64,000 bases of DNA from an uncultured Pseudomonadota bacterium (GCA_963836235.1 CAWIIP010000001.1:160001-224000); one strand, 5' to 3'; shown: positions 23,080 through 45,949, counted from the stretch's first letter. A program made the numbers and translations. The notes: generated from the letters alone by a model not told the origin.

Positions 23080-23705
23080 TGAATTCCCCCTTCAACGGTA
23101 TTCTAATGAACCGATATTTCAGCAACATTGAAATGAACCGTGCTTTCGAGGAAATCCTCGCGAGTCGCCTTTACCGCGGTATTCTGCTTTCTTTTGTCCT
23201 GCATGGCGCGATTTTCGGGGGAGCCCTGGGCATCATCGCCTGGGAGGAGGCCCATGCCGAATACAGGACGGATGTCGACCTTAAAGCCACTCCTCTCTTA
23301 ACATTACAGTCCAAGTTGGTTCCTCCGCCGCCACCCGAACCCTGGATCGTCGCCCAAAAGAGCAAGGCCCCGCCCCCGCTCAAGGTCATTCCCACGCCCA
23401 CCCCCGAGGAGGCTCCGATGGCGGTCGCCAGCCGCCAGCCTTCCTTGGTAGGCGGCTTCATTGACGAGAACGATTATCCCCTCGAGATGCGGAAGCAAAA
23501 GAAAGAAGGCCGACTGATCGTGGAACTTCTGATCAATATTGAGGGGAAAGTCGATAAGGTGACCATCCTCCAGGGTGCCGATCCAGCGTTTAATCAGGTG
23601 GTGCTCGATAGGTTGAAAGACGCGAGGTTCCGGCCGGCCTTGGACAAGATGGGCGAGCCCATTAACTGTCGTGTACGACTTCCGATTTCCTTTAAGCTAG
23701 ATTAA
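23079..23705 (+). CDS. tonB: Energy transducer TonB
   Basis: TM SFVLH, Pro-rich linker and YP...EG...FRPA...ISFKL C-domain. Confidence 0.85.
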   Translation: MNSPFNGILMNRYFSNIEMNRAFEEILASRLYRGILLSFVLHGAIFGGALGIIAWEEAHAEYRTDVDLKATPLLTLQSKLVPPPPPEPWIVAQKSKAPPPLKVIPTPTPEEAPMAVASRQPSLVGGFIDENDYPLEMRKQKKEGRLIVELLINIEGKVDKVTILQGADPAFNQVVLDRLKDARFRPALDKMGEPINCRVRLPISFKLD

Positions 23706-28992: not shown

Positions 28993-29022
28993 GGAATAAA
29001 ATGCCTTTTCAAAAGGCTTATC
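28993..29022 (+). promoter_or_regulatory. Putative ECF sigma promoter (autoregulatory): GGAATAAA-N16-CTTATC
   Basis: Lies directly upstream of the ECF gene's RBS. The same bipartite motif and spacing recur at 33261 and 42914. Confidence 0.7.
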
Positions 29023-29035
29023 CTAAGGAGGAAGT

Positions 29036-29599
29036 TTGGAAGACCGGGAGTTGGTTCGAAAAATACTCCAGGGTGACGAGGAAGCCAAAACCCAATTCTT
29101 TATCCAATACCGGGAACGCCTTTATAAGGATTGCGTTTTTCTCTTGGGCTACCGGGACTCGGAAGCCGAAGACCTGGTACAGGAAGCTTTCCTGATCGCC
29201 TTCAAAAAGCTTCCTGGGTTCGAATTCCGGTCTTCGCTGGGGACCTGGCTGACGCAGATCGGCATTTACCTTTGCTACAACCGCTACCGGACCCGGGCCC
29301 GGACGGTCCTGCAGGACGAGGAGAATTTGGAAAGCCTTTTGAGGGCGAAATCCTTGGAAGGGGAAGCCCAAAAATCCCGGGACGAGGACAAAAATCAAAA
29401 GCTCCGGCTGATCGACATGGGCCTGGAGAAGATCGGCCCCGAATGCCGGGAGATTGTGGTGTTGAGGGATAAAGAGGAAAAGACTTATATCGAAATCGGG
29501 AAGCTGTTGAAAATCCCATTGGGAACGGTGATGTCCCGTCTGTCGCGGTGCAAAAAGGCCCTGAAGGTTTTGATCGAACAAATGACTCAAGAAGGATGA
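29036..29599 (+). CDS. ECF-type RNA polymerase sigma factor
   Basis: EAEDLVQEAF, FRSSLGTWL and YIEIGKLLKIPLGTVMSRLSR. RBS aaggagg before a TTG start. Confidence 0.95.
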   Translation: MEDRELVRKILQGDEEAKTQFFIQYRERLYKDCVFLLGYRDSEAEDLVQEAFLIAFKKLPGFEFRSSLGTWLTQIGIYLCYNRYRTRARTVLQDEENLESLLRAKSLEGEAQKSRDEDKNQKLRLIDMGLEKIGPECREIVVLRDKEEKTYIEIGKLLKIPLGTVMSRLSRCKKALKVLIEQMTQEG

Positions 29600-29600
29600 G

Positions 29601-30269
29601 ATGGCTGATCTAATCAATGAATTTTTTGAGCGGGAATTGAGCGAGGCGGAAGCCGACTCGCTGGGTGACCTTTTGCGGGATTCCCCGGATTCGACCCTGC
29701 GTTTCGAGGGCCAGTTGGAACAGCATTACGCCCAAACCGGCCTGCCCTTACCCCAGCTTCCTTCTTCTTTGAATGACCTGCCCAAGGGCCCCAGCGGCAT
29801 TGGAGGCTTGGGAGGGATGAAGATCCTTTTCCTACTCGCGGCGGCTGGGTCGGGTTACCTCGCGTGGAAATATTGGCCGGTGAAGGCGGAGGTTCCCCTC
29901 CCGGGATATTCGCCCCAGGCGGCCCTTTCGGACGCCCCCCTCGACAAAAAACCGACGGCGCTCCAGGCCGTGAAACCCATTATCCAGCCCCGGGTGGCGG
30001 GTCCCACCGCGGAGGGCGAGGAATTGAGCGTGGTGGTGGACGCGCCCCAGAGGTCCCTGGTAACGGTCCGCATTCTCGACGCGTCGGGTAGGGAAGTCCG
30101 GCCCCTTTATACCGGTTTCGTCGAAGCCGGGCGGTGGAATTTCCAATGGGACGGCCTTCTGGAGAATGGGGAAGCGGCGGGAGCGGGCCAATACCGTATC
30201 GACGTCCAGACAGGCGCGGCACACATGTCCAAGGACATCCAGATCAAACTGGCGGCCCCAGCCCCCTGA
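29601..30269 (+). CDS. Putative anti-sigma factor: N-terminal ASD-like helices, one TM, C-terminal FlgD-Ig/CTD-like domain
   Basis: Coupled to the sigma gene. ERELSEAE ASD-like start, TM ILFLLAAAGSGYLAW, and VTVRILDASGREVR...WDG...GAGQYRI. Confidence 0.75.
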   Translation: MADLINEFFERELSEAEADSLGDLLRDSPDSTLRFEGQLEQHYAQTGLPLPQLPSSLNDLPKGPSGIGGLGGMKILFLLAAAGSGYLAWKYWPVKAEVPLPGYSPQAALSDAPLDKKPTALQAVKPIIQPRVAGPTAEGEELSVVVDAPQRSLVTVRILDASGREVRPLYTGFVEAGRWNFQWDGLLENGEAAGAGQYRIDVQTGAAHMSKDIQIKLAAPAP

Positions 30270-30354
30270 CTATCACGAAAATTTTCTGGCGTAAGAAGGC
30301 ATCCCGGAGGAATAATCATTCGGACTGACCGAATAACCGAATGGCGGGGAAACC

Positions 30355-31788
30355 TTGAAGCCTATTCCAATTATCCTGTTTTTATTCCTGCTCGCCTTGA
30401 GCGGGTCTTCTTTCGCCCAGTTCAATGGCGACGGCTTGAAGGGCATTTATTACATTAGCACCAACTTGACCAGCGCGGCTGTGACCGAAGTGGACCCCCT
30501 GGTCAGTTACCGGTGGTACGGCTGTCCGCCCCAGCCGGGGATGTCGGGAACCTCCTTCTCCGTCCGGTGGACGGGTCAACTGGATCCCGCCAATAGTGAG
30601 CCCTACACCATTTTTGCCGACCTGAACGGCGGCGTGAGCTTGATCGTGAACGGCCAGGTGCTGGCGAGCCATTGGACGGACACAGGCCCGCCCATCACCC
30701 GCTATTCGGGAGTGATCACCCTGACGGCGGGGGTTCCGGTGCCCATTGAGGTGGATTATTTCACCAACGGCGCGGCCGTCACGACTGACCTCATCCAACT
30801 GGGTTGGGAAAGCCCTTCCCAAACAGCTGAAACCATCCCTCGCCAGTACCTCTTCTCAGGCGCGGCCTTGAATCCCACTCCCACGCCCCAGACGACTTCG
30901 GCCTGCCAGTCCCCGTCCGCGACCATTACGGTGGATGGGGTCCTCAACGAATGGCCCTGGACCACGGCGGGGTGGAATAGCGTCAACCGGACTGTGCTCG
31001 GCAACGTCAACAGCGCCACGGCGGCCTTTAAAACACTTTGGGATTCCTCCAACCTCTACCTGGGTGTGACCGTAACCGACAGCCCGTTAGCCACCGGCGC
31101 CCCCTATGTTTACGACAACTCAACGGTTGAGCTTTTCCTGGATACCACCGACTCCCGAAGCGTGACCGTGACCAGTACCGACTACGAATACTTTTTCCAG
31201 TGGGGTGCCACGACGGCCGTGGAAAGCCTGGGAAGGACCACGGGGGTGAACATGAAGACCACGACGATCCACACGGGTTACGTGGTGGAGGCTTCCATTC
31301 CATGGTCCACGTTAGGGCTTTCAAGCCCCGGACCGGGGACGGTCTTGGGTTTGGATATCGGGGTTGATGTGGATCATAACGGGGGCAATTGCCGGGACGG
31401 TCAACTTATTTGGAACGGTGAATCGGACGACTACACCAATGCCAGCGATTATGGCCAGTTGACCCTGGCGAGCGCTTGTCCCACACCTGTTTCCACGCCG
31501 CCCGCGCCCACCGGGGGAAATCCCTATGTCGCTCCCAACCCTTCCAATGGGACCACGGTTCAGTTCGTCTATACCATGGCCGAGGGGGGCACGGCCAAAA
31601 TCAAAGTTTGGAACGCCTGGGGCAACTTGGCGGCGAGCTTGAGCGACCCCAAAGGCCCCGGCCTGCAGTCAAGCACGCTCAACATCTCAACCTTCGCGCC
31701 GGGCCATTATTTCTACCGTGTCGAGATGGATTACGACTCGGGCCGGACAGATAGCTTCAAGACCCAGGTCCTGGCAATCAAGAAATGA
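30355..31788 (+). CDS. Secreted non-catalytic PA14 + CBM9-like carbohydrate-binding protein with a T9SS-like CTD
   Basis: GDGLKGIYY/FSVRWTG (PA14), TVDGVLNEW...WDSSNLYL...VELFLD...EASIPW (CBM9) and PNP...GHYFYRV (CTD). Confidence 0.8.
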   Translation: MKPIPIILFLFLLALSGSSFAQFNGDGLKGIYYISTNLTSAAVTEVDPLVSYRWYGCPPQPGMSGTSFSVRWTGQLDPANSEPYTIFADLNGGVSLIVNGQVLASHWTDTGPPITRYSGVITLTAGVPVPIEVDYFTNGAAVTTDLIQLGWESPSQTAETIPRQYLFSGAALNPTPTPQTTSACQSPSATITVDGVLNEWPWTTAGWNSVNRTVLGNVNSATAAFKTLWDSSNLYLGVTVTDSPLATGAPYVYDNSTVELFLDTTDSRSVTVTSTDYEYFFQWGATTAVESLGRTTGVNMKTTTIHTGYVVEASIPWSTLGLSSPGPGTVLGLDIGVDVDHNGGNCRDGQLIWNGESDDYTNASDYGQLTLASACPTPVSTPPAPTGGNPYVAPNPSNGTTVQFVYTMAEGGTAKIKVWNAWGNLAASLSDPKGPGLQSSTLNISTFAPGHYFYRVEMDYDSGRTDSFKTQVLAIKK

Positions 31789-33203
31789 GAGCTATTGATT
31801 TCTCACCAAGATTGCACCCAGAAAGGAAAATCGTTTTTTTTCTTAGCGGTCTCTCCGCGAAGAAGATAAAAAATATTTTTAGGTTAAATGTCTTTCTTGG
31901 TGCCCTTGGTATCTTGGTGGTTCAAATTATGTTTCCTGGTTTTTGTTTTTCCCAAACCATTTCCTCCACCGCCGCCCTCGTCACGCCCTTGAGCGCTTTG
32001 GGGGCTTCCGCCCGGGCGGACGCTCTGGGGGGCGCCTTCGTGGGGCTCGCGGACGACCCTTCCGCCCTTTTCTACAACGGCGCGGGTCTTTCCCAGCTGA
32101 AGGCGGCCTCCCTTTCCATCAACCACAACAGCTATTTGGGGGGCTCCTTCGAAGAGACTCTTCTTTTCGGATTGCCCGCCGGGTCCTTAGGTGGCTTCGC
32201 TGGAGCCCTGCAATATGTCTCCTGGGGGAACCTGGACGAACGGGACGCGAACGGAGCCTATCAGGGCACTTTCGCCGACAGCGACGCCGCCTTCAGCGTG
32301 GGATGGGGCACCAACGTGGCAAGCGGACTTTCCCTGGGGGTGGCCTTGCACGGGATCCAGCAAAAGATCGTGGACTCGCTCTATGGAGGCCTTTCAGGAG
32401 ACTTGGGCTTCCTTTGGATTCTAGATCCGGGCCTTCGTTTGGGCCTGGCCTATACGGGGTTGGGAACCACCCAGGCCGGATTTTCCCCGGCCCAGGACCT
32501 GCACTGGGGCCTGTCAAGCTTCCTCGGCCTGGGCAAAAATTCCAATCTCCGGCCCCTTTTATCGGGTGACTGGGAGCCCAAGGGTGTGAGCCGGATTCAA
32601 GGGGGACTGGAGGGAATCATCCAGAGGGATTGCTTCCTGCGGGTCGGCTACCAGGCCGCTCTGGAAAACAATCAGATCGGGGGATTGACGGGATTCACCG
32701 CCGGAGCGGGTTTTCGAGTGGGGCAGTTCCAATTGGATTACGCCTTCGTTCCTTACGGGGATTTGGGGACGTCGCACCGCATCAGCGTGGGTTATGAATT
32801 CCCCAATCCGACGCCTGTGGTCGCTAAGCCAGTAACGGTGATAGGAAGTCCTGTGACAGTTCAAGCCCCACCGGTGACGGTCGTGGCCACGCCCCAACCT
32901 ATGGCGGTTCCCGCGGGGCCTCCGAAGTCAAAGGTTGAGGTACACTTCGAGCTGCCCACGGCCGCTGGAACCCCGATGGGGTTTTCCCAGGCCTCCACCC
33001 TGGTCGGACCTTACGAAAAAGCCGCCCAAGAGAATCCCGGAAGCAGCCAGGCCTGGCGGAATTTGGGGATTATTTACTTAAAAACGGGCCAAATTGCATT
33101 GGGCATCCAATGTTTGGAACAGGCCCTTCGTTTAAATCCAAATGACCAAGCTTTGAAAGAATGGTTGGAAAATTATCGGGCAAAACATCCATCTAATCCC
33201 TGA
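31785..33203 (+). CDS. PorV/PorQ-family beta-barrel with a Pro-rich linker and C-terminal TPR
   Basis: SARADALGGAFVGLADDPSALFYN, barrel end LDYAF...HRISVGYEF, and TPR AWRNLG...EQALRLNP. True start may be further downstream. Confidence 0.82.
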   Translation: MRAIDFSPRLHPERKIVFFLSGLSAKKIKNIFRLNVFLGALGILVVQIMFPGFCFSQTISSTAALVTPLSALGASARADALGGAFVGLADDPSALFYNGAGLSQLKAASLSINHNSYLGGSFEETLLFGLPAGSLGGFAGALQYVSWGNLDERDANGAYQGTFADSDAAFSVGWGTNVASGLSLGVALHGIQQKIVDSLYGGLSGDLGFLWILDPGLRLGLAYTGLGTTQAGFSPAQDLHWGLSSFLGLGKNSNLRPLLSGDWEPKGVSRIQGGLEGIIQRDCFLRVGYQAALENNQIGGLTGFTAGAGFRVGQFQLDYAFVPYGDLGTSHRISVGYEFPNPTPVVAKPVTVIGSPVTVQAPPVTVVATPQPMAVPAGPPKSKVEVHFELPTAAGTPMGFSQASTLVGPYEKAAQENPGSSQAWRNLGIIYLKTGQIALGIQCLEQALRLNPNDQALKEWLENYRAKHPSNP

Positions 33204-33260: not shown

Positions 33261-33290
33261 GGAATAAACCGACAACCCCAGACACCAATC
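33261..33290 (+). promoter_or_regulatory. Putative ECF sigma promoter: GGAATAAA-N16-CCAATC
   Basis: Same -35 element and spacing as 28993, upstream of the first GH30. Confidence 0.55.
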
Positions 33291-33408: not shown

Positions 33409-36108
33409 ATGGAGTTAAAACGAAAACTGAAAGTTTCGTTCATTCTGATTGCGGCATTATTGAGCCCGGCGATACAGGCCTTTGCCGGCACCTGTACGAT
33501 AAACGCCACCCAAACCAACCAATACATCCATTGTATCGGGGCGTCCAGCGCTTGGAGCGGCATCAACGGTTTGGGAACCCAGTTATTCGCGGACGACAAC
33601 GTGAACGGCCATATCGGACTTCAGTCCCTCAGGGCCCGGATCGATCCCACCAACAACTTTTCTTCCGAAGTGAGTACCTTGGTTTCCGCCAAGGCCGTCA
33701 ATCCCAATATCCTATTCTGGGCCACCGAATGGTCCCCTCCCGCCCAATACAAGGCCAACGATAACGTCGATGGCGGTGCCAGCAACGATACCTTCCTAGG
33801 AGCCAGCTCCGGAGCGGCCAATAGCGACGATACGGGATTGGCAAGTTACCAAGTCTCGTTTATCCAATATTGCAAGAACCAAGGCATTAACCTTTACGCC
33901 CTCTCGGTTCAGAATGAACCCAATTTCAATCCGACCTACGAGGCCTGTCTTTGGTCCGCGGGTCAGTTTGACGTCTACGCAAAGGCCTTTTATAGCGCCC
34001 TCCAGAGTGCCGGCCTTTCAACCAAAATCATGATTCCTGAGCCGGACAACCCGGGTGGCATGAACTTGGCCTCTACCGCCATGGCTGATTCGACCGCAGC
34101 CCCTGAAATCGGCATCATCGCCTCCCACGCATACGGCGAAAACCTTGCCCCTCTTTCTTCCTACGGCTTCAGTAACATCACGAACCAGGAGTGGTGGGAA
34201 ACGGAAGTATCTGGGAACACGACCGATGTGCCGGGCGCCTTGCAGGAAGCGGGTTGGATCCATACCAGCCTGGTGGATGCCAGCACGAACGCTTTCCATT
34301 ATTGGTGGATCCAGGACCTTTACAGCGGCAGTAGCCTCGACATCAAGGCTTTCGTCCTGGGCAATTACAGTAAATTCATACGCCCGGGCTATTACCGCAT
34401 GGGCGCGACTGAAGTTCCCTCGTCTGGCGTGTCAGTGAGCGCCTTCAAGAACACCAATACTTCCTCGCCCCAGACCATCGTGTTCGTGGCCATCAACAGC
34501 AACGGCTCATCGGTCAACCAGACCTTTACGATCAGCGGAGTCAATGTGACTTCGGTGACTCCTTGGGTGACCAACGGGAGCACCAACCTCGTTGCGCAAC
34601 CTGCTGTGGCCGTTTCAGGGGGGAGTTTTACCTATTCCCTGACTCCGAGCAGTGTTACGTCCTTCGTGGGCGTGGTCAGCGGAACCGCTGCTAACACCCC
34701 CACCTTCACTCCTGTTCCGCCAACGGCGACCCACACCAATACTCCCGTGCCGCCCACGGCCACCTTTACGCACACCAACACTCCCGTGCCGCCGACAGCC
34801 ACCAACACTTTCACGGCGACCCATACCAACACCCCAGTGCCTCCCACGGCCACTCTTACGAATACGCCGATTCCGCCGACGGCCACGAATACGAATAGCC
34901 CTGTGCCGCCAACCGCGACCCACACGGCTGTTCCGCCTACGTCCACGGGAACGAGTACCCCTGTGCCGCCTACAGCGACAATCACTAACAGCCCGGTTCC
35001 TCCGACGGTGACGAACACGCCATTGCCACCCACGGTGACCAATACTCCAGCGCCGCCGACGGTAACCAATACCCCGGTTCCGCCCACGGCGACGGCGACC
35101 ATTACCAACACGCCGGTGCCGCCAACGGCGACTAACACCTTTACTTTGACCAATACGCCGACTTTGGTGCCGCCAACCGCCACGCATACGCCGGTGCCGC
35201 CGACGGCAACATTCACTCTTACGCCGCTTTCACCAACCGACACTCCCACGGTGGTCGTCTCCAGTTCCAACTTCACGGTGAAGTTGTTAAGCGGTGTGAC
35301 TAGCAATACCACCAACAGCCCTCATCCCTTCATCCAAGTGGTGAACACGGGAACGGGGCCTTTAAGCCTGAACAACGTGGAAGTGCGTTATTGGTTCAAC
35401 TGTGATTGCACGACCCAATCTCTGCAAGTCTGGGTGGACTGGGCGGGTTTACTGCCCGCTGGGACATCAGTCACAGGGGATGTCGTGACCTCGGTGGTTC
35501 CCACCAGCTTGGGAGGCCAGACCGATTACATCAGCTACAAGTTCACCGGGAACTTGGTGCTACAACCGGGCCAGATGATCGAGATCCAAAGCCGCTTCAA
35601 CAAGAGCGACTGGAGCAACATGACCCAGGCTAATGACTGGAGCTTCGCGCCCAATACAAGTTACACCAACGCGCCACAGGTGACGGGATACCTGAGTGGG
35701 GCATTGGTATGGGGCGAACAGCCCGCGGGAGGTGCGGCATCAGCCCTGAAGGTGGCTAGCGTCATTTCCTTCCCGAATCCCTCAACGGGGACCGGCACAA
35801 CCCTTTCCTTCACCTTGGGAAGTTCGGGTTCAGGTGTGAGCGCGTCGGATTTGAGCGAAAGCAACCCGTTGTTGGTGGACCCCAACGCCAAGATCACCTT
35901 AAGTATCTACAGTCTAGGTTTCCGATTGATCTGGACCGAGACCTTGACGGGTGGGGGCTATGGGACGACCGGACCTCATGATGTTTATTGGAACGAGAAG
36001 GACCTAGGCGGAGCGAAATTGTCCAACGGGGTTTATTTCCTGCGGGTAACCGTTGAGTCGAACGGCCAGACCACATCCTCGGTTGCCAAGATTCTCATCC
36101 TCGGATAA
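33409..36108 (+). CDS. GH30 xylanase-like glycoside hydrolase + Pro/Thr linker + CBM3 + CTD
   Basis: WSPPA, QNEP (acid/base), WETE (nucleophile) and YSKFIRPG. CBM3 VEVRYWF...KSDWSN...NDWSF...LVWGEQP. CTD FPNP...NGVYFL. Confidence 0.88.
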   Translation: MELKRKLKVSFILIAALLSPAIQAFAGTCTINATQTNQYIHCIGASSAWSGINGLGTQLFADDNVNGHIGLQSLRARIDPTNNFSSEVSTLVSAKAVNPNILFWATEWSPPAQYKANDNVDGGASNDTFLGASSGAANSDDTGLASYQVSFIQYCKNQGINLYALSVQNEPNFNPTYEACLWSAGQFDVYAKAFYSALQSAGLSTKIMIPEPDNPGGMNLASTAMADSTAAPEIGIIASHAYGENLAPLSSYGFSNITNQEWWETEVSGNTTDVPGALQEAGWIHTSLVDASTNAFHYWWIQDLYSGSSLDIKAFVLGNYSKFIRPGYYRMGATEVPSSGVSVSAFKNTNTSSPQTIVFVAINSNGSSVNQTFTISGVNVTSVTPWVTNGSTNLVAQPAVAVSGGSFTYSLTPSSVTSFVGVVSGTAANTPTFTPVPPTATHTNTPVPPTATFTHTNTPVPPTATNTFTATHTNTPVPPTATLTNTPIPPTATNTNSPVPPTATHTAVPPTSTGTSTPVPPTATITNSPVPPTVTNTPLPPTVTNTPAPPTVTNTPVPPTATATITNTPVPPTATNTFTLTNTPTLVPPTATHTPVPPTATFTLTPLSPTDTPTVVVSSSNFTVKLLSGVTSNTTNSPHPFIQVVNTGTGPLSLNNVEVRYWFNCDCTTQSLQVWVDWAGLLPAGTSVTGDVVTSVVPTSLGGQTDYISYKFTGNLVLQPGQMIEIQSRFNKSDWSNMTQANDWSFAPNTSYTNAPQVTGYLSGALVWGEQPAGGAASALKVASVISFPNPSTGTGTTLSFTLGSSGSGVSASDLSESNPLLVDPNAKITLSIYSLGFRLIWTETLTGGGYGTTGPHDVYWNEKDLGGAKLSNGVYFLRVTVESNGQTTSSVAKILILG
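35190..36108 (+). repeat. CBM3-CTD tail module, copy 1
   Basis: The CBM3 DNA is near-identical to 45040-45567 and 50670-51198. The last ~150 nt match the GH62 gene end. Confidence 0.9.
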
Positions 36109-36170
36109 GAATGTGGCGGGGAAGTGAAGCCAAAAGGTCTGACTTTGCAGTAGTCGGAAAATGAACTAGG

Positions 36171-36240
36171 TGCCGCGGTTAATGGAAGGGAAAAACAACG
36201 GGCGTTGTTTGGGCCCCCTTCCAACCGCGGCATTTTTTTT
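36171..36240 (+). terminator. Three-tier stem-loop followed by T8; repeated element, copy 1
   Basis: Pairings tgccgcggtt/aaccgcggca, ggaaggg/cccttcc and aaacaac-gggc-gttgttt, then tttttttt. Confidence 0.7.
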
Positions 36241-36313
36241 AGGTCGAACCGGCGCCGACCTATCGGGTTATCGTCGTACTTATCCTAGAATCGTTTGTGG
36301 GGTCTTCGAATTT

Positions 36314-39300
36314 ATGGTTCAGTCATCTAATTTTAAAAACCATTCGTTTCGAATTATCTCAATGGTGCTGGTCTTCCTTTCTCTAATTTTGGGTTTTACC
36401 GTTCGTTCTCATGCCCAAACCTACAACTGGCAAAATGTGGTCATTATGGGGGGCGGGTTCGTTCCGGGACTGGTCTACAGTCCGGTTTCGCAGGGCCTGC
36501 TTTACGCTCGAACCGACGTTGGCGGGTTCTATCGTTGGAATAATTCAGCCGGCCAATGGGTGCCCCTGACCGATATGTTCGGTCCCACCCAGGCGAACAA
36601 TTACGGGGGGGAGAGCATCGCGCCCGATCCCGTAAACCCCAACGTGGTCTACGCGGCGGCGGGGTCCTCGGGCACCGGCGTGATCCTCAGTTCGACGAAC
36701 CAAGGCGGGTCGTGGACGGTCAATTCCATTGCGGTTTCCATCGCGGGCAACAACGACGGAAGGGAAGCGGGCGAGCGCCTAGTGGTGGACCCTAATCTGA
36801 ACTCCAAGTTGTATTTCGGCTCCCGATGGCAAGGGCTTTGGGTGAGCACCAATTCAGCGTCCAGTTGGAGCCAGGTCACCTCCTTCCCGGTTTTGGGTGA
36901 CACCGGCTATGGGCTCTCCTGGGTTATATTCCCCCCTCCCGCGAATGGCTACGGCAATCCTTCGGGTTCGGCCTCGGCCACCATCTACGTGGGGGTTTTG
37001 GCCATGAGTTCGGGCAACAGCAACGTGTACCGGTCTACTAACGCAGGCGCCAGCTGGACGCTCATCCCCGGCGGGCCCTCCAACATGGTGACACCCCACG
37101 CTAGCCTGGGCACCGACGGAAATCTTTGGATCGTTTACGACAGTGGTGGCTATGGCCCGAACAGCATCTCGACCGGCCAAATCTGGAAGCTCAACACGGG
37201 CACTCTGGCTTGGTCCAACGTGACCCCTTCCAATGGGCCGCCCAGCGGAAGCGGCGGTTATGCCGGTATCTGCGTTGACCACGAGAACGCCAGCCATGTT
37301 TTGGTTACGACCATCGATTGGTGGGGCGGGCCTGATAGGCTCCTTTCGACCACCAACGGCGGCGGTTCCTGGTCGGTCATCGCCTTGGCTGGCTCCAGTT
37401 CCTCGGTCTTCAATGTCAACAGCGCCATCTACCAGGAGGGTTGCAGCGGCGGCTCGGGTGGGGCGGGTTGGGCGGGGTGCGTGGCCATAGATCCATTCAA
37501 TTCCAACAACGCCGTTTACCCATCCGGCGGGGCGGGTGGGGGTGGCGGGGTTTGGAGCAGCACCAATATCCAGGCGAGCCCCGTTTCCTGGACCTACAGC
37601 GACAACAACCTTGAGGAAACGGTGGCGATTTACATGAACCCCGCCACTGCGGGCGGCATTCTCTTTTCTTGCTTGGGCGACGTGGGCGGCATGCGCCACA
37701 CGAGCGTGACCCAATCTCCCGCCTCAGGCATGTACTGCAACCCCCAATATTCAAATACCAACATGCTGGACTTCGCCGAATCCAAGCCCAATACGGTGGT
37801 CCGGGTGGGGAACAGCACCAACCCCTCAGCCGTGAATAGCGACGTGGCCTATTCCACCAACAACGGGCAAACCTGGACGCCCTGGGGAAGCGCGCCCCCG
37901 GGCTACACTTCCACAGGCCAGATGGGATCGGTGGCGGTAGCGGCGGACGGTTCCCGGGTGGTGGTGTCGCCCTATAGCGACTATGGATCTCCGGCCTACG
38001 CTTCTTCCCTTGGTGGGAGTTGGACGACCTGCTCCGGCCTTCCCAGCGGCGCAATGGTGGCCTCGGACCGTTCGAACGCCTCAACTTTCTACGCCACCTA
38101 TCCAAGCGAGTGGGTTTACGGCAATTCCGTGACAATCTACGAGAGCACTAACAGCGGGGCCAGCTTCAGCCAGGTGAATACGATCCCCGTGAATTGGAGC
38201 GATGCCAACGGCAATGGACAATGGGTCATGCCCCGGCCCGTTTTTGGGGAGCCCGGAGAATTCTGGGTTTCCACTTACGGCAACCTCTACCGATTCACCA
38301 ACGGGGGTTCCAGCGTGACGGCCCTCGCCAACGTGTTTGAACCTATGGGGCCGGTAGGGTTCGGCAAGGCCGCCTCCGGGCAGACCCACCCGGCGGTCTT
38401 CCTGATCGGGACCGTCAACGGTACCTACGGGTTTTACCGAAGCGACGACGGGGCAGGAGTCACCTGGACCCAGATCATGAATCCCAACCAACAGTACGGT
38501 AAGCCGGGATGGGCGGAGGGGGACGAGACCATCTACGGGCGCTGTTATATCGGTGCCGGGGGCCGAGGGACCGTCTACGGGGATATCACCGCCGACACAC
38601 CTACCAATACGCCTAACTCCACGCCCACTAAAACAGTCACTTCGACCTCCACCGGAACGCCAATGGCTACCCATACTAACAGCCCAACGAGCACCCCGAC
38701 TTCCACCCCAACGAATAGTCCGACCCAAACTCGGACAAATAGCCCCACGAATACGGTAACAATTACCCCCACTAAAACGGCAACTCTTACGGCAACCAAT
38801 ACCGTTGCCAATACCTCCACCCCAACCAATTCGGTGACGACTACCCAGACATCCACCCCATCCAACAGTGCGACTAGTACAGCCACGGCTACTAGGACGA
38901 ATTCGGCAACGAACACCGCCACTTCCAGCCCCACCAGCACCGCAACAGCCACCCGGACCAATAGCCCCACTTACACGGCTACTTCCAGTGTCACCCCTAC
39001 AGCTTCCGCAACCCCTAGCCCGACAACCTCAAACAGCCCCACTAAAACAACGACATCTACCCCTACCAATACTTTAGCCAATACAGCCACTCCCACCGCC
39101 ACGATGACGCCTACGGATACATTTGGGAACACGGCTACGAATAGTCCTACTTTGACTAGTCCGAACACCCCGACAAAAACGACGACGTCTACTCCCACGA
39201 ATACCTTGGCAAACACGGCCAGCCCAACAGCTACTACGACGCCTACGAGTACCCTAGTCAACAGCGCCACCGACACCCCTTCCGCTACCGCTTCAAACAC

Positions 39301-40171
39301 GGCAACAATAACGACCACTTCTACTCCCACACACACCTTGGCCAACACAGCCACTCAAACCGCCACGGCGACGCCTACAGACACCTTTGCGAACACGGCT
39401 ACGAATACCCCCACTTCGACCACCTCAAACACCCCGACCCAAACAGCGACATCAACGCCTACCAACACATTAGCCAACACAACCACTCCAACCGCCACGG
39501 CCACCTCTACCAATACTTTGGCTAATAGTGCCACCGATACCCCGACGGCTACCGCTTCAAACACACCTACCCATTCGATGACCGCTACTGCCTCAAGTAC
39601 GGCAACTAAAACGACTACTTTCACCGCTACGAACACCTTCGCCAATACCGCTACAGCGACACCGACAAATACCTTGACCAATACGGTTACGAATACGACC
39701 ACTTCGACCACATCAAACACACCGACCAAAACGACAACTTCAACGCCTACCAAGACTTTGTCCAACACCGCAACCCAAACCGATACAGTGACAACAACCA
39801 ATAGCCCAACCCCTACTGAAACATATACCAACACTTTCACGGTTACGGCGGTTCCTTCCACATTGACCAGTACGCCAACACCCACGCCCGTAAGCACCAA
39901 GGGCTTAGTGATCTACCCAAACCCTGTCATGGGACCGAGCATGAACGTGCTACCGCCGGCCTACATTGGCAGCCAGAACGTCCAGGTTGAAATTTTTACC
40001 CTCAGTTTCCGCAAGGTCCTGGATGAGACCTTCCCCAATGTTCCTTCCGCAACGCCCATCAACCTGCCCTTGACCGATTCCTTCGGTCACCCGCTGGCCA
40101 ACGGGCTTTACTATTTGGTGGTTACGGTGGATAGGAAACATTCCATCGGGAAATTCTTGGTTTTGAAATAA
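36314..40171 (+). CDS. GH74 xyloglucanase-like enzyme + very long Thr-rich stalk + CTD
   Basis: GGGFVPG, YARTDVGG and LGDVGG (both catalytic Asp), BNR repeats, GRGTVYGD and CTD IYPNP...LANGLYYL. Start is 36314 or 36362. Confidence 0.9.
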   Translation: MVQSSNFKNHSFRIISMVLVFLSLILGFTVRSHAQTYNWQNVVIMGGGFVPGLVYSPVSQGLLYARTDVGGFYRWNNSAGQWVPLTDMFGPTQANNYGGESIAPDPVNPNVVYAAAGSSGTGVILSSTNQGGSWTVNSIAVSIAGNNDGREAGERLVVDPNLNSKLYFGSRWQGLWVSTNSASSWSQVTSFPVLGDTGYGLSWVIFPPPANGYGNPSGSASATIYVGVLAMSSGNSNVYRSTNAGASWTLIPGGPSNMVTPHASLGTDGNLWIVYDSGGYGPNSISTGQIWKLNTGTLAWSNVTPSNGPPSGSGGYAGICVDHENASHVLVTTIDWWGGPDRLLSTTNGGGSWSVIALAGSSSSVFNVNSAIYQEGCSGGSGGAGWAGCVAIDPFNSNNAVYPSGGAGGGGGVWSSTNIQASPVSWTYSDNNLEETVAIYMNPATAGGILFSCLGDVGGMRHTSVTQSPASGMYCNPQYSNTNMLDFAESKPNTVVRVGNSTNPSAVNSDVAYSTNNGQTWTPWGSAPPGYTSTGQMGSVAVAADGSRVVVSPYSDYGSPAYASSLGGSWTTCSGLPSGAMVASDRSNASTFYATYPSEWVYGNSVTIYESTNSGASFSQVNTIPVNWSDANGNGQWVMPRPVFGEPGEFWVSTYGNLYRFTNGGSSVTALANVFEPMGPVGFGKAASGQTHPAVFLIGTVNGTYGFYRSDDGAGVTWTQIMNPNQQYGKPGWAEGDETIYGRCYIGAGGRGTVYGDITADTPTNTPNSTPTKTVTSTSTGTPMATHTNSPTSTPTSTPTNSPTQTRTNSPTNTVTITPTKTATLTATNTVANTSTPTNSVTTTQTSTPSNSATSTATATRTNSATNTATSSPTSTATATRTNSPTYTATSSVTPTASATPSPTTSNSPTKTTTSTPTNTLANTATPTATMTPTDTFGNTATNSPTLTSPNTPTKTTTSTPTNTLANTASPTATTTPTSTLVNSATDTPSATASNTATITTTSTPTHTLANTATQTATATPTDTFANTATNTPTSTTSNTPTQTATSTPTNTLANTTTPTATATSTNTLANSATDTPTATASNTPTHSMTATASSTATKTTTFTATNTFANTATATPTNTLTNTVTNTTTSTTSNTPTKTTTSTPTKTLSNTATQTDTVTTTNSPTPTETYTNTFTVTAVPSTLTSTPTPTPVSTKGLVIYPNPVMGPSMNVLPPAYIGSQNVQVEIFTLSFRKVLDETFPNVPSATPINLPLTDSFGHPLANGLYYLVVTVDRKHSIGKFLVLK

Positions 40172-40187: not shown

Positions 40188-42752
40188 ATGAAAATCCAAA
40201 GCAGGCTTCAACTATTTTTATTCCCGTTTATTCTTGGCGCTGGTACCAACCTTTGGGCCCAAACCTGCACGGTGAACGCCACCGTTACGAACCAATACAT
40301 CCATTGCATTGGAGCGTCCAGTGCCTGGAGCGCCGTGGGAAACATGGGACAGGCGTTATTCGCCAATGACAACGTGAACGGCCATATCGGCCTGACCTCC
40401 CTTAGGACCCGTATCGACCCTACGGCCGTCGGCGGAAACACCGGTGCCTGGAACAGCGAGTTGAACAACATTACCGCGGCCAACGCGGTCAACCCCAACG
40501 TGCTTTTTTGGAGCACCGAGTGGTCACCCCCCGCCGAGTACAAAACCAACAACAGCGTCGATGGAGAGGTAGTGAACGCGGGGGTCACCAATGTTGGCGC
40601 CTTCACGGGCTCCGACACCGGCTCCGCCCCCAACAGCGCCGATACGGGCTATGCCCAATACCTGACCCAATATCTCCAATACTGCAAAAGCTACACCGGC
40701 GTGAGCCTCTATTCCGTCTCGGCCCAGAACGAACCTAGTTTTGAGGTCACCTATGAAGGCGCCAATTGGACCACGGGCCAGTTTGATGTTTTCATCCCTT
40801 GCCTGGCGGCATCCATTACCAGCGCGGGGCTTTCCACCAAGATCATGATGCCGGAGCCGCCGAATGAATGGGGCATGAACCTGGGCACCGCCACCATGTC
40901 CGACGCCAACGCGGCCCCCCTGGTTAGCATCATCAACACCCACCTGTATGGCACCTTTTACGACACCCTGGCCCAGATCGCCTCGAGTTACGGCTACACC
41001 AAACTGACGAACCAGGAATGGTGGGCGACGGAAATTTCCGGCTGTACCACCGGGCTCATTACGGCCCAGGATTCGGCTGCCATGTGCGTGGCGGGCTGGG
41101 CCCACCAGTCCCTGGTCGAGGGCCAGATGAACGCCTTCCATTACTGGTGGTTGGACGACCTGATCAGCGGCACATCCCTCACCGACGCGGCCTTCGCTTT
41201 GGGAAATTTCTCCAAGTTCATCCGGCCCGGTTACTACCGTATGGGGGCCACCGAGGGTCCCCAGGCCGGCGTGACGATCTCCGCCTACAAGAACACGAAC
41301 AATTCCGCGCCCACCACTTTCGTGATCGTGGCCATCAACTACAACGCAAAATCCGTGAACCAGACCTTCAACCTGACCGGCCTCACCTCTGCCTCGGTCA
41401 CGCCCTGGTTGACTGACTTGGGCAACGGACTGGTCCAACAGGCCGCAGTGCCCGTATCCGGAAACAGTTTCACCTATTCCATGCCAGTTTCCAGCATCCT
41501 AACCTTCGTAGGAGTCAACAACGCCGGTCCCACACCTACCTTTTCGACCACCCCCACGCCTACACCCACTTCCACCACCACGAAAACCCCGACTCGGACG
41601 CCGACTATGAGCCCGACCTCGACCCTAACTCTTACCGCCTCTTATACCCCTACTGCGACCCCGACGCAGTCCCATACCCCCTCGGCCACGCCCACCGTTA
41701 CATTGACGGCTTCGCCGTCAAATACTCCCTCGGGCACACCGACCCGCACCCCTACCAGTTCGATGACGGCTACGCCTTCCCTCACCCCCAGTAAAACGGC
41801 CACCGCTACAACAACGTTCTCCGCTACTAGTACGCTTTCCTTCACCACGACTGCGACGGATACCGAAACCCCGGTTAATACGCCGACGGCAACGCCTACC
41901 CATACTTTAGCCAACACCGCCACCCAAACCGCCACGGCGACAACGACCAATACTTTGCCCAATACAGTTACGAATACTCCCACTTCGTCCGCTTCCAACA
42001 CACAGACCCAAACAACGACATCAACACCTACCAATACATTGGCCAACACAGCCACTTCAACCGCCACCGCTACGCCTACTACTACTTTGACTAATACGGC
42101 CACCGACACACCCACCGTAACCAACTCAAACACACCTACCTATTCGACGACCGCTACCGCATCGAGTACGGCGACTAAAACGACTACATCCACCCCCTCG
42201 AACACCTTGACCAAGACCGTAACCGAAACTGCCACGGCGACATCGACCAATACCTTGGCCAATACGGTTACGAATACGCTAACTTCGACCACCTCAAACA
42301 CACCGACCAAAACAACGACATCAACGCCTACCAATACTTTAACCAACACCGTCACTCAAACCGCTACGGTGACGCCGACCAATAGCGCGACTCAAACCGC
42401 CACTTATACAGCCACTTTAACGGTTACGGCGGTTCCCCCCACTTTAACCAACACCGCAACACCCACGCCCGTAGTCAACAAGGGCCTGGTAATCTACCCC
42501 AACCCCGTCACAGGGACGACGGTGAACGTTCTTCCGCCTGAATACACGGGAACGGCGAATGTGAGGGTGGAAATCTTCACCCTGGCCTTCCGGAAGGTGC
42601 AGGAGGAGACTTTCGTGAACGTGCCGTCGGGGGTGGCGGTGACAGTGCAATTGACCGATAAATGGGGAAGACCCCTAGCCAACGGACTCTACTACTTGGT
42701 AGTGAAGACAAACGGCGGCCAGTCCATTGGAAAATTGCTGATTATCAAGTAA
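40188..42752 (+). CDS. GH30 glycoside hydrolase + Thr-rich stalk + CTD (no CBM3)
   Basis: WSPPA, QNEP, WATE and FSKFIRPG. Paralog of the 33409 catalytic domain; its tail resembles the GH74 tail. Confidence 0.88.
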   Translation: MKIQSRLQLFLFPFILGAGTNLWAQTCTVNATVTNQYIHCIGASSAWSAVGNMGQALFANDNVNGHIGLTSLRTRIDPTAVGGNTGAWNSELNNITAANAVNPNVLFWSTEWSPPAEYKTNNSVDGEVVNAGVTNVGAFTGSDTGSAPNSADTGYAQYLTQYLQYCKSYTGVSLYSVSAQNEPSFEVTYEGANWTTGQFDVFIPCLAASITSAGLSTKIMMPEPPNEWGMNLGTATMSDANAAPLVSIINTHLYGTFYDTLAQIASSYGYTKLTNQEWWATEISGCTTGLITAQDSAAMCVAGWAHQSLVEGQMNAFHYWWLDDLISGTSLTDAAFALGNFSKFIRPGYYRMGATEGPQAGVTISAYKNTNNSAPTTFVIVAINYNAKSVNQTFNLTGLTSASVTPWLTDLGNGLVQQAAVPVSGNSFTYSMPVSSILTFVGVNNAGPTPTFSTTPTPTPTSTTTKTPTRTPTMSPTSTLTLTASYTPTATPTQSHTPSATPTVTLTASPSNTPSGTPTRTPTSSMTATPSLTPSKTATATTTFSATSTLSFTTTATDTETPVNTPTATPTHTLANTATQTATATTTNTLPNTVTNTPTSSASNTQTQTTTSTPTNTLANTATSTATATPTTTLTNTATDTPTVTNSNTPTYSTTATASSTATKTTTSTPSNTLTKTVTETATATSTNTLANTVTNTLTSTTSNTPTKTTTSTPTNTLTNTVTQTATVTPTNSATQTATYTATLTVTAVPPTLTNTATPTPVVNKGLVIYPNPVTGTTVNVLPPEYTGTANVRVEIFTLAFRKVQEETFVNVPSGVAVTVQLTDKWGRPLANGLYYLVVKTNGGQSIGKLLIIK

Positions 42753-42913: not shown

Positions 42914-42943
42914 GGAATAAATCCGCCGCACCAAACACTTATC
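42914..42943 (+). promoter_or_regulatory. Putative ECF sigma promoter: GGAATAAA-N16-CTTATC
   Basis: Both boxes and the spacing are identical to the motif upstream of the sigma gene. Confidence 0.7.
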
Positions 42944-43174
42944 TTAGAGGAATCATCCGCTTTCAAGTGGAACCGGTCCCGTCGGGGTTTTGGTTAGATA
43001 TGTTGAGAGAAAGTATCTAGAATTTTTTTTCGAGGCTGCCCTTTTCTTAAATCGTTTTGGGCGGGCCGGATTCAGGTGACCTTGGATCTGGATGATTTAT
43101 TTTCAGTTCGTGGCCCTTGGGAATTAGGTAAGGGCGTTTAAAAAGCGAACTTTTTAAACGTGAATTTAAAGGAG

Positions 43175-45949
43175 ATGGAATTGAAATTTCTAAAAGCGGC
43201 TCTGACAAGCTTAATCATTCTGTTTTTGGGGGCAAGTTTTTCCGCCCTTTCCGCCCAAACCATTCCCACCACGTTTTCATGGACATCGACCGGCCCCCTC
43301 ATCAGCGCCAAGAACGACTCCACCCATAACATGATCGCGGTTAAGGACCCCTCCACCGTTTACTACAACGGCCAATACATTGTTTATGCCTCTTCCGTCA
43401 ATTCCGCGGGAAACTATGGAATGGAATACCTGCATTTCACCGACTGGAGCACGGCTGGCGCTGCGACGCCGTATTTCATGGATAGCAACCCTAATATCGG
43501 GAGTGGTTATCACACGGCGCCCCAAGTGTTCTATTTCGCCCCGCAGAACAAGTGGTACCTGATTTTCCAGAGCGGCCAGCCGCAGTACTCCACCAATAGC
43601 GACCCCACCCAGCCCCAGAACTGGACCGCTCCGAAGAATTTCTTCGCGTCTCAGCCCTCCAGTGTGAGTAATTGGATCGATTTCTGGATCATCAGCGATT
43701 CCTCTAATGTCTATCTGTTTTTCGCCGGTGATAACGGAAATTTCTATCGCAGCTCGACCTCCCTCGCGAACTTTCCCAATGGTTTCAACACTCCCGTCAT
43801 CGTCTACACGGATTCCGAGTTCAATCTATTCGAGGCAGACAATGTCTATACCGTCGAGCAAACCGGTACCTATCTGGCCGACATTGAGTGCATCGGCAGT
43901 GATGGACACCGATTCTTCCGCGCCTTGAGTGCCACGACCCTCGGCGGAACCTGGACCTCGCTCGGCAATACGGCAAACCTCAATACTCCTTTTTTAGGGG
44001 CTCACAACGTCACCTTCCAATCCGGCGTCTCTAACTGGACCAGCGACTTCAGCAGCGGCGGGGCGGTGATCGACGGCTATGACTCAACCGATTCCATCAA
44101 CCTCAACAATCTGTCCTTTCTCTACCAGGGCGACGTTTCCAATAGTGATTCCTACAATCTGATTCCCTGGCAACTCGCCTTGGTGACCTCCAAGGCCAAT
44201 ACAACCACTAGCCCGACTGTCACCCCGACCCATACCAACACTCCAGTTCCACCAACGCCAACTCATACCAATACACCGGTGCCTCCGACCAGCACGCCCA
44301 CCCGCACCGCCACGTCTACTCCAACGAACAGCTTCACGATGACCCACACCAATACCCCCGTGCCGCCGACGGCTACGGCGACTTTGACACCGACTTCCAC
44401 GGCCACCTCGACCAAAACCAATACGCCGGTACCGCCGACCGCTACTGTCACCTCGTCAGCTACGAGTACGGCGACTTCGACAAAGACCAATACGCCAATT
44501 CCGCCGACTGCGACGGATACGGCCACCGCGACAAAGACCAATAGTCCTGTGCCTCCTACCGCCACTTTCACGGCGACTTCCACCAATAGTCCTGTGCCGC
44601 TCACGGCTACCAACACGAACAGCCCGGTACCGCCCAGTTCCACCAATACGCCGGTTCCTCCGACGGCGACGAGTACCAATAGTCCAGTACCGCCCACGGC
44701 TACGAATACGCCCTTTCCGCCGACAGCCACCAATACTTCGGTGCCTCCGACGTCCACGAGCACAATGGTGCCGCCGACGAACACATTTACTTCGATACCG
44801 CCCACGGTGACGAATACCCTTGTGCCTCCGACAGCAACAAACACGCCCGTGCCGCCGACTTCCACCGCTACTTTGACGGCAACGGGGACGCCAACGAATA
44901 GTCAGGTGCCTCCGACGGCAACCCTTACGCAAACGCCTTTGCCGCCGACAGCTACGAGGACCTTTACGCCGATACCACCTACGGCCACCTTTACCCTGAC
45001 GCCGGTACCTCCGACGGCAACTTTCACCCATACGCCCGTTCCGCCGACGGCAACATTCACTCTTACACCGCTTCCACCAACCGACACTCCCACGGTGGTC
45101 ATCGCCAGTTCCAGCTTCACGGTGAAGTTGTTGAGCGGCGTGACCAACGGCACAACCAATAGCCCTCATCCCTTCATCCAAGTGGTGAACACGGGAACTG
45201 GGCCCTTGAGCCTGAATAATGTGGAAGTGCGCTATTGGTTCAACTGCGATTGCACGACCCAATCCCTGCAGGTCTGGGTGGACTGGGCGGGATTGTTACC
45301 CGCCGGGACATCAGTCACGGGGGATGTCGTGACCTCGGTGGTTCCCACCAGCTTGGGAGGCCAGACCGATTACATCAGCTACAAGTTCACCGGGAACCTG
45401 GTACTGCAACCGGGCCAGATGATCGAGATCCAAAGCCGGTTCAACAAGAGCGACTGGAGCAACATGAACCAGGGGAACGACTGGAGCTTCGCGCCGTATA
45501 CCAGCTACACCAACGCCACGCAGGTGACGGGATATCTGGGTGGGGCACTGGTTTGGGGTGAACAGCCGGTGGCGGCCCCGGCGGCGCTGTCGGTTTCCAG
45601 CGCCTTGGTATTCCCGAACCCCTCAACGGGGAACGGTACGACCCTTTCCTTCAACTTTTCCGGAAGGCGCGGTGGGCCGAACGGATCCTTGTTGTCGGAT
45701 GCCAGCCCGCTGTTGCTGGATCCCAACGCCAAGATCACCTTGGGCATCTATAGTTTGGCCTGGAGGCTTATCTGGACACAGACCTTGACGGGCGGGGCCT
45801 ATGGGACGACCGGACCTCATGATGTTTATTGGAACGAGAAGGACCTAGGGGGAGCGAAATTGGCTAACGGGGTTTATTTCCTGCGGGTCACCGTCGAGTC
45901 GAATGGTCAGACTACTTCCTCCATCGCCAAGATTCTCATCCTCGGATAA
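43175..45949 (+). CDS. GH62 alpha-L-arabinofuranosidase + Pro/Thr linker + CBM3 + CTD
   Basis: [34 protein letters not shown] and FLYQG. Start is 43160, 43175 or 43181. Confidence 0.9.
44981..45949 (+). repeat. CBM3-CTD tail module, copy 2 (mosaic)
   Basis: 44981-45808 is near-identical to 50612-51439, and 45801-45949 matches 35960-36108. Confidence 0.9.

Follow-up and report, generated by a model that had tools for sequence, protein, structure and literature searches.

Four consecutive, co-oriented genes at positions 29,036-33,203 of a 64,000-nt stretch of DNA from an uncultured Pseudomonadota bacterium (GCA_963836235.1 CAWIIP010000001.1:160001-224000; the whole stretch is hereafter called the window) were analyzed by computational methods. 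They encode an extracytoplasmic function (ECF) sigma factor, a putative anti-sigma factor ending in an immunoglobulin-like (Ig) domain, a secreted protein with a carbohydrate-binding module (CBM) and a C-terminal domain (CTD) of the kind used in type IX secretion systems (T9SS), and a PorV-like outer-membrane barrel with a tetratricopeptide repeat (TPR) tail. This unit is referred to as the cassette and lies ahead of genes for glycoside hydrolases (GH) of xylan-degrading families. The initial annotation, made from the sequence alone, had described four co-oriented genes, among them an anti-sigma factor with one transmembrane (TM) helix and a C-terminal FlgD-Ig domain, a protein with PA14, CBM9 and CTD regions that lacks a catalytic domain, and a PorV-like barrel with an extra TPR tail. 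All four open reading frames (ORFs) were found on the plus strand with the same boundaries, and family scans and structural models recover the domains as described (Table 1). The genome to which the window belongs (G000; 3.97 Mb, 99.4% complete) is that of an uncultured soil bacterium within a family of candidate division FCPU426, whose 16S cluster is reported in the Goldbacteria paper to include a cellulose-degrading single-cell genome (PMC7031533).

Table 1. Features of the cassette and of the adjoining putative regulon (window coordinates).
Feature	Position	Strand	Basis
Promoter-like motif P1, GGAATAAA-N16-CTTA	28993..29020	+	Pattern match; the sigma gene starts 16 nt downstream
ECF sigma factor, 187 aa	29036..29599	+	Sigma70_r2 and Sigma70_r4; TIGR02937
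Putative single-pass anti-sigma factor, 222 aa	29601..30269	+	FlgD_ig, AlphaFold2 model, gene position
Secreted non-catalytic putative glycan binder, 477 aa	30355..31788	+	Signal peptide, PA14, CBM9, cassette-type CTD
PorV/PorQ-family outer-membrane barrel, 472 aa, with linker and C-terminal two-repeat TPR tail	31785..33203	+	NF033709, TPR_1, model
Promoter-like motif P2, GGAATAAA ... ACACCAATC	33261..33290	+	Pattern match; the GH30-CBM3 gene (33409) starts ~120 nt downstream
GH30-type xylanase homologue with CBM3 and CTD-like tail, putative regulon member	33409..36108	+	Family scans, orthologous position
1333-aa ORF between the two GH30 genes, probably co-transcribed	36170..40171	+	No Pfam/NCBIfam match; regulon membership inferred from position
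Second GH30-type xylanase homologue, type A CTD	40188..42752	+	Family scans
Promoter-like motif P3, GGAATAAA ... ACACTTATC	42914..42943	+	Pattern match; the GH62-CBM3 gene (43160) starts ~220 nt downstream
GH62 (arabinofuranosidase family) with CBM3 and CTD-like tail, putative regulon member	43160..45949	+	Pfam, CTD scan

The sigma protein contains regions 2 and 4 only (Sigma70_r2, E 6e-11; Sigma70_r4, E 1.8e-08) and scores 80.6 bits against TIGR02937 (sigma70-ECF; cut-off 42.9), which places it among the ECF (group 4) sigma factors. It reaches no NCBIfam equivalog cut-off, the best match being PRK11922 with 98.9 bits versus the 204 required. The start codon of the co-oriented second gene lies 1 nt past the sigma stop codon. 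Its product was modelled with AlphaFold2 (AF2) from an alignment with 26 homologues, at a mean predicted local distance difference test (pLDDT) score of 74. The model comprises three short N-terminal helices (residues 2-46), one long hydrophobic helix taken as the TM segment (71-90), a disordered proline-rich stretch (91-140) and a beta-sandwich with pLDDT >90 (143-215), and FlgD_ig matches residues 141-204 (E 3.3e-12). General features of anti-sigma factors are present, in that the gene stands beside an ECF gene in the same orientation and a predicted cytoplasmic N-domain is followed by a single TM helix. The 29601 protein matches neither the class I anti-sigma domain (ASD) nor the zinc-binding anti-sigma (ZAS) proteins: residues 1-70 contain no cysteine, as an HxxxCxxC zinc motif would require, the N-terminal regions of 24 such proteins give no consistent Pfam match at E ≤ 5 (one of them matches DUF4880 at E 0.11), and a PDB profile search with the N-domain returned nothing below E 0.17. 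A profile of the whole protein retrieves 253 cluster representatives at E ≤ 1e-30 among 1.84 billion; 138 of the best 150 are 205-338 aa long, while FlgD_ig is repeated in the remaining 12, which are long proteins.

The third gene product carries a signal peptide, a PA14 domain (E 1.6e-16) and CBM9_1 (E 2.2e-30), with no catalytic family among its Pfam and NCBIfam matches. Its CTD scores 27.4 bits against the type A family TIGR04183 (cut-off 23) and 20.9 against Pfam PF18962 (cut-off 27). Within the genome the cassette CTD forms a distinct subtype: its own four copies are matched at E ≤ 4e-40, the next protein at 8e-21 and all others at 3e-9 or weaker. The regions ahead of the CTD, referred to as heads, vary between cassettes. 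Among 25 CTD proteins scanned, NHL/SGL propellers are found in eight, PA14+CBM9 in four, LamG_3/DUF11 in three and DUF7948+SBBP in two, whereas Kelch, IgGFc_binding and pectate lyase+malectin heads occur once each and no family was found in the remaining five, of which three are 243-277 aa long. These tiny CTD proteins are characteristic of a divergent cassette subfamily (loci L002, L015 and L033) that additionally has a longer anti-sigma N-terminus.

The barrel gene overlaps the CTD-protein gene by 4 nt. Its product matches the PorV/PorQ family NF033709 (104 bits, cut-off 90) and stays below both equivalogs of that family, PorV (NF033710, 39.3 versus 250 bits) and PorQ (NF033711, 98.3 versus 220 bits). 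In the model, 14 strands (residues 109-338) are followed by a low-confidence linker of 60 residues and by four helices (400-467) that include a TPR_1 match at 422-454. Of the solved structures, those of Flavobacterium johnsoniae PorV (8gl6_F, E 1.1e-13, and 6h3i_F) come closest, ahead of FadL and TodX. The parts of the cassette belong to well-populated families in this genome, with 21 open frames matching PorV_fam (16 over the cut-off), 76 FlgD_ig matches and 47 type A CTD matches. The strong form of the TPR tail, in contrast, is exclusive to cassettes: a tail profile reaches E ≤ 6e-32 on only four of the 21 PorV_fam frames, all four of them in cassettes, while a weaker TPR-like stretch (4e-11) is seen in one other barrel, which is a PorV-FlgD_ig fusion. 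The genome also contains at least eight sigma-less pairs, each with a PorV-like barrel gene placed immediately behind one whose product terminates in a CTD or FlgD_ig-type tail (e.g. C4:573982/574401, C2:1634998/1635432 and C4:669800/670129), together with two barrel-FlgD_ig fusions, an arrangement that suggests one anchor barrel per large surface protein. In the window itself, a 785-aa ORF at 1508-3865 (+) combines a PorV-like barrel below the family cut-off with FlgD_ig, a Big_13-like stretch and a C-terminal OmpA domain, i.e. a barrel fused to the kind of tail carried by the neighbours of other barrels.

Four cassettes are present in the window's genome. Each combines an ECF sigma factor with a TM protein that has FlgD_ig at its C-terminus, a CTD protein and a TPR-tailed PorV barrel. 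Twenty stretches surrounding anti-sigma homologues, drawn from 14 further genomes of the family, served as a sample of relatives; their ORFs were scored with profiles from the four own cassettes, subsets being confirmed with Pfam. All four genes are present in 23 of the 28 anti-sigma loci for which DNA was fetched (15 genomes, one FCPU426 family). In the five incomplete loci, the sigma gene lies just beyond the stretch (L028b), the barrel gene is cut by a contig end (L034), the sequence ends before the fourth gene (L022 and L015) or the CTD gene is missing (L016). In 26 of the 28 loci, an ECF gene immediately precedes the anti-sigma gene on its strand; in L028b it lies 340 nt upstream, visible in L014, and in L016 it forms one open frame with the anti-sigma gene. 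The latter locus (G001:C6, 6945-8903, minus strand) is a same-genus copy of cassette 3 in which sigma and anti-sigma factor share a 652-aa open frame and a gap of 274 nt replaces the small CTD gene between anti-sigma and barrel; a gene fusion or an assembly error could account for it. A second scan, seeded with the barrel and limited to one genome per species, yielded seven loci with a full-length match including the tail, at least one of which may duplicate a genome already counted, and the four genes are together in all seven. Named records with full-length barrel matches carry the names candidate division FCPU426, 'bacterium' or 'uncultured proteobacterium', the closest being 74% identical. 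Conservation in relatives, on which the initial annotation had made its proposal depend, therefore holds for the gene set but not for the gene order, which permutes between three arrangements (ECF-anti-sigma-CTD protein-barrel, ECF-anti-sigma-barrel-CTD protein and CTD protein-barrel-ECF-anti-sigma). Since the four-part set recurs four times in its own genome and again in relatives, the grouping exceeds chance.

The distribution of the cassette was followed with a profile of the anti-sigma N-terminus (A5), built without the divergent long-N-terminus form of L015 and L033. Matches are found in 26 of the 30 other genomes examined from the window's family, at most seven in any one of them, and in two of 68 genomes that represent 22 further families of the phylum. 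The four family members that it misses are two carriers of the divergent form (L015, L033) and two genomes that are 66% and 82% complete, and one of the two matched genomes outside the family (G061) holds a complete diverged cassette (L128). In three DNA runs of one soil study, the share of sampled words that was present did not exceed 0.32. Pairwise distances between cassettes correlate for all six parts (r 0.54-0.87; values reached in 0 of 2000 permutations), which indicates that cassettes were inherited whole and not shuffled; as related sequences share history, contact between parts is not implied. The highest correlation of any pair joins the sigma factor and the anti-sigma N-domain (r 0.87) and, together with gene position, is the ground for supposing that the 29601 protein may bind the sigma factor.

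The fold of the anti-sigma C-domain was a further point of the initial annotation, which expected a FlgD/CTD fold and proposed that the domain displays a mimic of a CTD. The AF2 model and its structural look-alikes agree on a FlgD/CTD-class sandwich, and the refuting observations named in the initial annotation were, as far as they were checked, not made. Among solved structures, the domain most resembles FlgD hook caps (7eh9, E 2.3e-04), and T9SS CTDs rank after them with E values of 1e-3 to 1e-2 (PorZ 5m11, RgpB CTD 7pq4 and 5ag8, PorU 6za2 and the bound substrate CTD 8glk_D). When the domain was aligned with the cassette CTD using hhalign, only 31 columns covering the first two strands were matched (probability 40%, pairwise E 3e-4), and hhalign comparisons involving the TPR tail or the anti-sigma N-domain gave nothing. 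The common fold class thus stands, whereas the greater closeness to FlgD and the short profile alignment leave the CTD mimic as a tentative suggestion. The same look-alikes, the absence of an anti-sigma family match for the N-domain and the position of the paralogous cassette L002 directly behind flgE could be taken to mean that the 29601 protein is a flagellar FlgD-like or structural envelope protein whose adjacency to the sigma gene has no regulatory meaning, but this is highly improbable: the FlgD N-terminal domain is missing and only FlgD_ig is found (best FlgD equivalog 45.8 bits, cut-off 230), a TM helix follows a predicted cytoplasmic part of 70 residues, the ECF partner is constant across the sampled loci, counting the fused and the 340-nt-distant cases, and it is with the sigma factor that the N-domain co-varies most strongly. 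For these reasons, a FlgD role was rejected and the protein is treated here as a putative anti-sigma factor.

A two-block motif of ECF type, GGAATA(A/T)(A/C/T)-N15-17-C(T/C)(A/T)(A/G), precedes the sigma genes of the cassettes. It is present in 16 of 27 sigma upstream regions, compared with a mean of 0.046 (maximum 1) in 500 shuffles, and GGAATA alone occurs in 22 of the 27 versus 1.59 in shuffles. Regions without the motif belong mainly to the divergent small-CTD subfamily (L002, L015, L033) and have TATAAT-like boxes upstream of sigma. Scanning the window with a nearby form of the pattern, in which the spacer was fixed at N16, produced three matches (P1-P3 in Table 1), all on the plus strand and intergenic, where 0.13 are expected and none of 100 shuffles reaches three. 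Generic sigma-70 promoter and terminator scans of 28-44 kb remained at shuffle level, and Rfam and tRNA scans detected no RNA element in or near the cassette.

Alignment of the intergenic DNA that follows the barrel gene in the seven PA14-CBM9-type cassettes shows one strongly conserved block and no other, GGGAATA.A ... C..ACAC..ATC. The gene behind it encodes GH30-CBM3 in the window and in L039, L040, L036 and L029, and GH62-malectin-CBM3 in L031, GH62 being second behind the cassette in L039; the downstream gene of the seventh locus (L037) is cut and was left out of this count. In four orthologues, the AACAC..ATC block recurs in the promoter of the sigma gene itself. Similarly, sigma promoter and second site have matching -10 blocks in L019, L020 and L025, where the second sites precede a giant NHL or NHL/SBBP protein of the same repeat type as the cassette head. 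As own and target promoters pair up in this manner, the cassette sigma factors appear to be autoregulated and to drive neighbouring secreted-protein genes that match the head. Judged from these conserved sequences, the window cassette is tied to a putative xylan-degrading regulon through a conserved promoter motif, and the connection to the adjoining hemicellulase genes drawn in the initial annotation is thereby strengthened.

With confidence and doubt in about equal measure, the four-gene unit is interpreted as a cell-surface signalling cassette made of T9SS parts and placed ahead of xylan-degrading enzyme genes. It probably senses xylan at the cell surface and turns on the adjoining xylan-degrading genes. 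In the relay put forward here, all protein contacts, the direction of the signal and the ligand are proposed. The PA14-CBM9 protein would be exported and, through its special CTD, be anchored at the surface on the cassette's own PorV-like barrel, in the way that PorZ is held on PorQ. The TPR tail of the barrel, on its 60-residue linker, would reach into the periplasm and meet the Ig domain of the anti-sigma factor on a linker of ~50 residues. Binding of a xylan-type glycan by the surface head would then alter the contact between tail and Ig domain, the anti-sigma factor would release the ECF sigma factor, and the freed sigma factor would act on GGAATAAA-N16-C(T/C)(A/T)A-type promoters, transcribing the operon in which it is encoded as well as the GH30 operon and the GH62 gene. 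In the models, the barrel tail and the Ig domain each sit on a long low-confidence proline-rich linker, and because these linkers start at opposite membranes the two domains may be expected to meet in the periplasm.

Contact between these partners was addressed by predicting a complex of the barrel with its tail (residues 56-472) and anti-sigma residues 120-222, a pairing whose modelling had been suggested in the initial annotation. Three runs scored 0.14, 0.53 and 0.56 (median 0.53), while the best of three controls scored 0.00; contact agreement between the runs is 28% or more, and partner pLDDT is at least 66. In the calibration, whose counts are only rough since own alignments were used for the prediction, the mark is one that 116 of 157 solved complexes attain, as do two of 215 mismatched pairs, and scores ≤ 0.60 comprised only 18 of the 157 solved complexes together with both passing mismatches. 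The modelling gives a weak hint that the barrel or its TPR tail may contact the anti-sigma Ig domain.

At slightly less than even confidence, the cassette may represent a third route by which ECF sigma factors are coupled to polysaccharides, in addition to the TonB-transducer/FecR and RsgI routes. Its distinguishing parts would be a swappable lectin head on a T9SS CTD, a dedicated PorV-like barrel, a TPR tail and an Ig-domain anti-sigma factor, with the whole cassette duplicated and re-headed. It is conceivable to the same degree, still just short of an even chance, that each plant-cell-wall enzyme set or giant surface protein set in these genomes has a sensor of its own, as the multiple anti-sigma matches would allow. 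A third architecture had also been raised as a possibility in the initial annotation; the conserved unit, the promoter link to enzyme genes and the folds speak for that proposal, whereas binding of the sigma factor by the 29601 protein, the CTD mimic and the barrel-to-anti-sigma interaction remain its tentative elements.

Several observations weigh against the interpretation as a surface-sensing cassette. The anti-sigma N-domain has no match to any known anti-sigma family, and the complex prediction is weak, gives no interface and does not separate tail contact from barrel contact. With regard to the promoters, the -10 block of P1 (GGCTTATCC) is somewhat unlike those of P2 and P3 (ACACCAATC and ACACTTATC), and the strict pattern is not enriched genome-wide (six matches, 3.5 expected from base composition), for which reason it is unusable as a genome-wide regulon finder; a subfamily-specific form of the motif likewise has six genome matches, two of them beside the cassette. 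A further point is the passage of the CTD protein across the outer membrane. A single SprA-like frame of 2029 aa (G000 C1:~512300-515900, minus strand) contains three SprA stretches (112, 72 and 29 bits), each below the 200-bit cut-off, and no PorU body was found in the genome, only CTD-like ends matching PorU. GldL and GldM gave no match in the genome either, although the control genomes, too, returned none and the search thus had no positive control. Export of CTD proteins consequently cannot be assumed to be Bacteroidota-like, and CTD export in this lineage may depend on a reduced system or on a different one. Two further points concern the sensor itself: five CTD proteins are head-less, the three smallest among them fitting a signal borne by the CTD better than ligand sensing, and the same-genus cassette L016 has no CTD gene at all. 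Finally, barrel or CTD genes stand behind ECF-type motifs in L026 and L028 and could be mere regulon members.

This last observation is what would be expected if the sigma and anti-sigma factors were an ordinary ECF pair whose outputs include the barrel and the CTD protein, with the Ig domain sensing another cue such as envelope stress or a periplasmic sugar. The sigma-less pairs and the barrel-FlgD_ig fusions elsewhere in the genome, from which it follows that cargo-plus-barrel pairs exist independently, are also in line with such an arrangement. It is nevertheless judged improbable, because strong matches to the cassette TPR tail are confined to cassette barrels, the four genes stay linked through three gene orders and many paralogue duplications, and all cassette parts co-diversify. 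Moreover, FecA is both a target and a sensor in the Fec system, and being a regulon target therefore does not exclude a sensing role.

The main rival to glycan sensing by the cassette is an export or assembly checkpoint resembling PorA signalling, in which the CTD of a cassette protein that is waiting in the periplasm or has failed to dock on its barrel, or else the free TPR tail, would engage the anti-sigma Ig domain and set sigma activity, so that genes for surface proteins and secreted enzymes are tuned to export capacity. Precedent comes from Porphyromonas gingivalis, where the CTD of PorA is reported to bind the inner-membrane sensor PorY in the periplasm and to activate PorXY-SigP (PMC12152298). 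The three cassette CTD proteins that are little more than a CTD (243-277 aa), the distinct subtype of the cassette CTD and the common fold class of CTD and anti-sigma C-domain could all be accommodated by such a checkpoint. The diversity of the binding heads and their match to regulated neighbours (PA14-CBM9 with GH30-GH62, NHL with giant NHL proteins) would, however, be superfluous in a pure checkpoint, and in L016 the CTD on which it would depend is missing. On balance the checkpoint is thought rather unlikely, though less so than an ordinary ECF pair, and the preferred reading remains that of a cassette sensing glycan through its surface head.

Viewed against known systems, the cassette is lineage-specific and multiplied, and it would act like FecA-FecR-FecI or PorA-PorV-SigP while being a member of neither. 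In P. gingivalis, PorA is described as a lectin-like CTD protein that is bound to PorV and feeds a pathway ending in the ECF sigma factor SigP (PMC7712824). In the reading proposed here, the PorA-PorV-PorY/PorX-SigP pathway and the cassette have in common a small CTD protein with a lectin-like head, its association with PorV, a position upstream of an ECF sigma factor and a periplasmic signalling role of the CTD. Four differences stand out: the inner-membrane partner in the cassette is a single-pass Ig-domain anti-sigma factor and not a histidine kinase with a response regulator, the barrel is a dedicated TPR-tailed paralogue and not the general PorV, all parts are encoded together and multiplied with different heads, and the outputs are glycoside hydrolase and surface-protein genes rather than genes of the secretion machine.

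Both FecA-FecR-FecI and its form in the polysaccharide utilization loci (PUL) of Bacteroidota, which consists of a SusC-like transducer, an anti-sigma factor and an ECF sigma factor, resemble the cassette in their logic: a barrel that extends into the periplasm, a single-pass anti-sigma factor, and an ECF sigma factor that is autoregulated and drives adjoining uptake or degradation genes. A Pfam scan of the four cassette proteins revealed no TonB-dependent transducer, N-terminal signalling domain or FecR domain, which sets the cassette apart from Fec-type systems. Furthermore, its barrel is of the 14-strand PorV/FadL type and its ligand binder is a separate secreted protein. In the RsgI-SigI systems of Clostridium thermocellum, paralogous sigma/anti-sigma pairs with different carbohydrate-binding sensors induce matching glycoside hydrolase genes. 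Multiple paralogous pairs, each with its own proposed sensor and matching glycoside hydrolase genes, are likewise a feature of the cassettes, but the CBM of RsgI is part of the anti-sigma factor in a Gram-positive envelope, whereas the cassette binder is a separate outer-surface protein, with an outer-membrane barrel interposed between the binder and the anti-sigma factor. Retention of a CTD protein at the surface by a barrel is known for PorZ-PorQ and PorU-PorV in the T9SS (PMC7712824), and type B CTD proteins are reported to pair with PorP-like barrels (PMC9143113). In these pairs, as in the cassette, a barrel of the PorV, PorQ or PorP type holds the protein at the surface and is often encoded next to it, but the barrel has no TPR tail and the pair no link to a sigma/anti-sigma system. 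Full-text searches, with subscription-only papers outside their scope, retrieved no account in which a PorV-like barrel is coupled to an ECF/anti-sigma pair.

If the proposed relay is true, a new type of transducer would be added to cell-surface signalling, and PorV-family barrels, so far known as shuttles and anchors, would gain a regulatory and signal-transducing role. This would also bear on the pathway of P. gingivalis PorA, for which it is still unclear how the surface protein reaches the inner membrane: the combination of CTD, PorV-like barrel and inner-membrane sensor, hard-wired in the cassette, could help to explain that part. In addition, readable pairs of sensor head and regulon, such as PA14-CBM9 with GH30/GH62, would make substrate use predictable from sequence in an uncultured soil lineage that degrades cellulose and xylan. 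The cassettes would further supply orthogonal sets of sigma factors, anti-sigma factors and promoters with defined motifs.

Several additional features were recorded around the cassette. Within the 1333-aa ORF, the 38-40 kb region shows a strong negative GC skew (-0.30). Beyond the GH62 gene, a 600-aa AraC-type regulator (46158-47960, +) represents a second and different regulator in the xylanase cluster and is followed by a third GH30 gene, here with malectin and CBM3 (48185-51580, +). Upstream of the cassette, at 19109-23705 (+), a TonB-dependent receptor of 919 aa precedes ExbB-like and TonB C-terminal-domain genes, and no link between these and the cassette was seen. Two Kelch-repeat proteins are encoded at 53698-59491 (+), the larger of which (1366 aa) also contains an M12B/reprolysin-like peptidase domain and Big_7. 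Near the end of the window, at 63087-63342 (+), the group II intron domains D1-D4 are matched (RF02005, 60.4 bits, cut-off 49).

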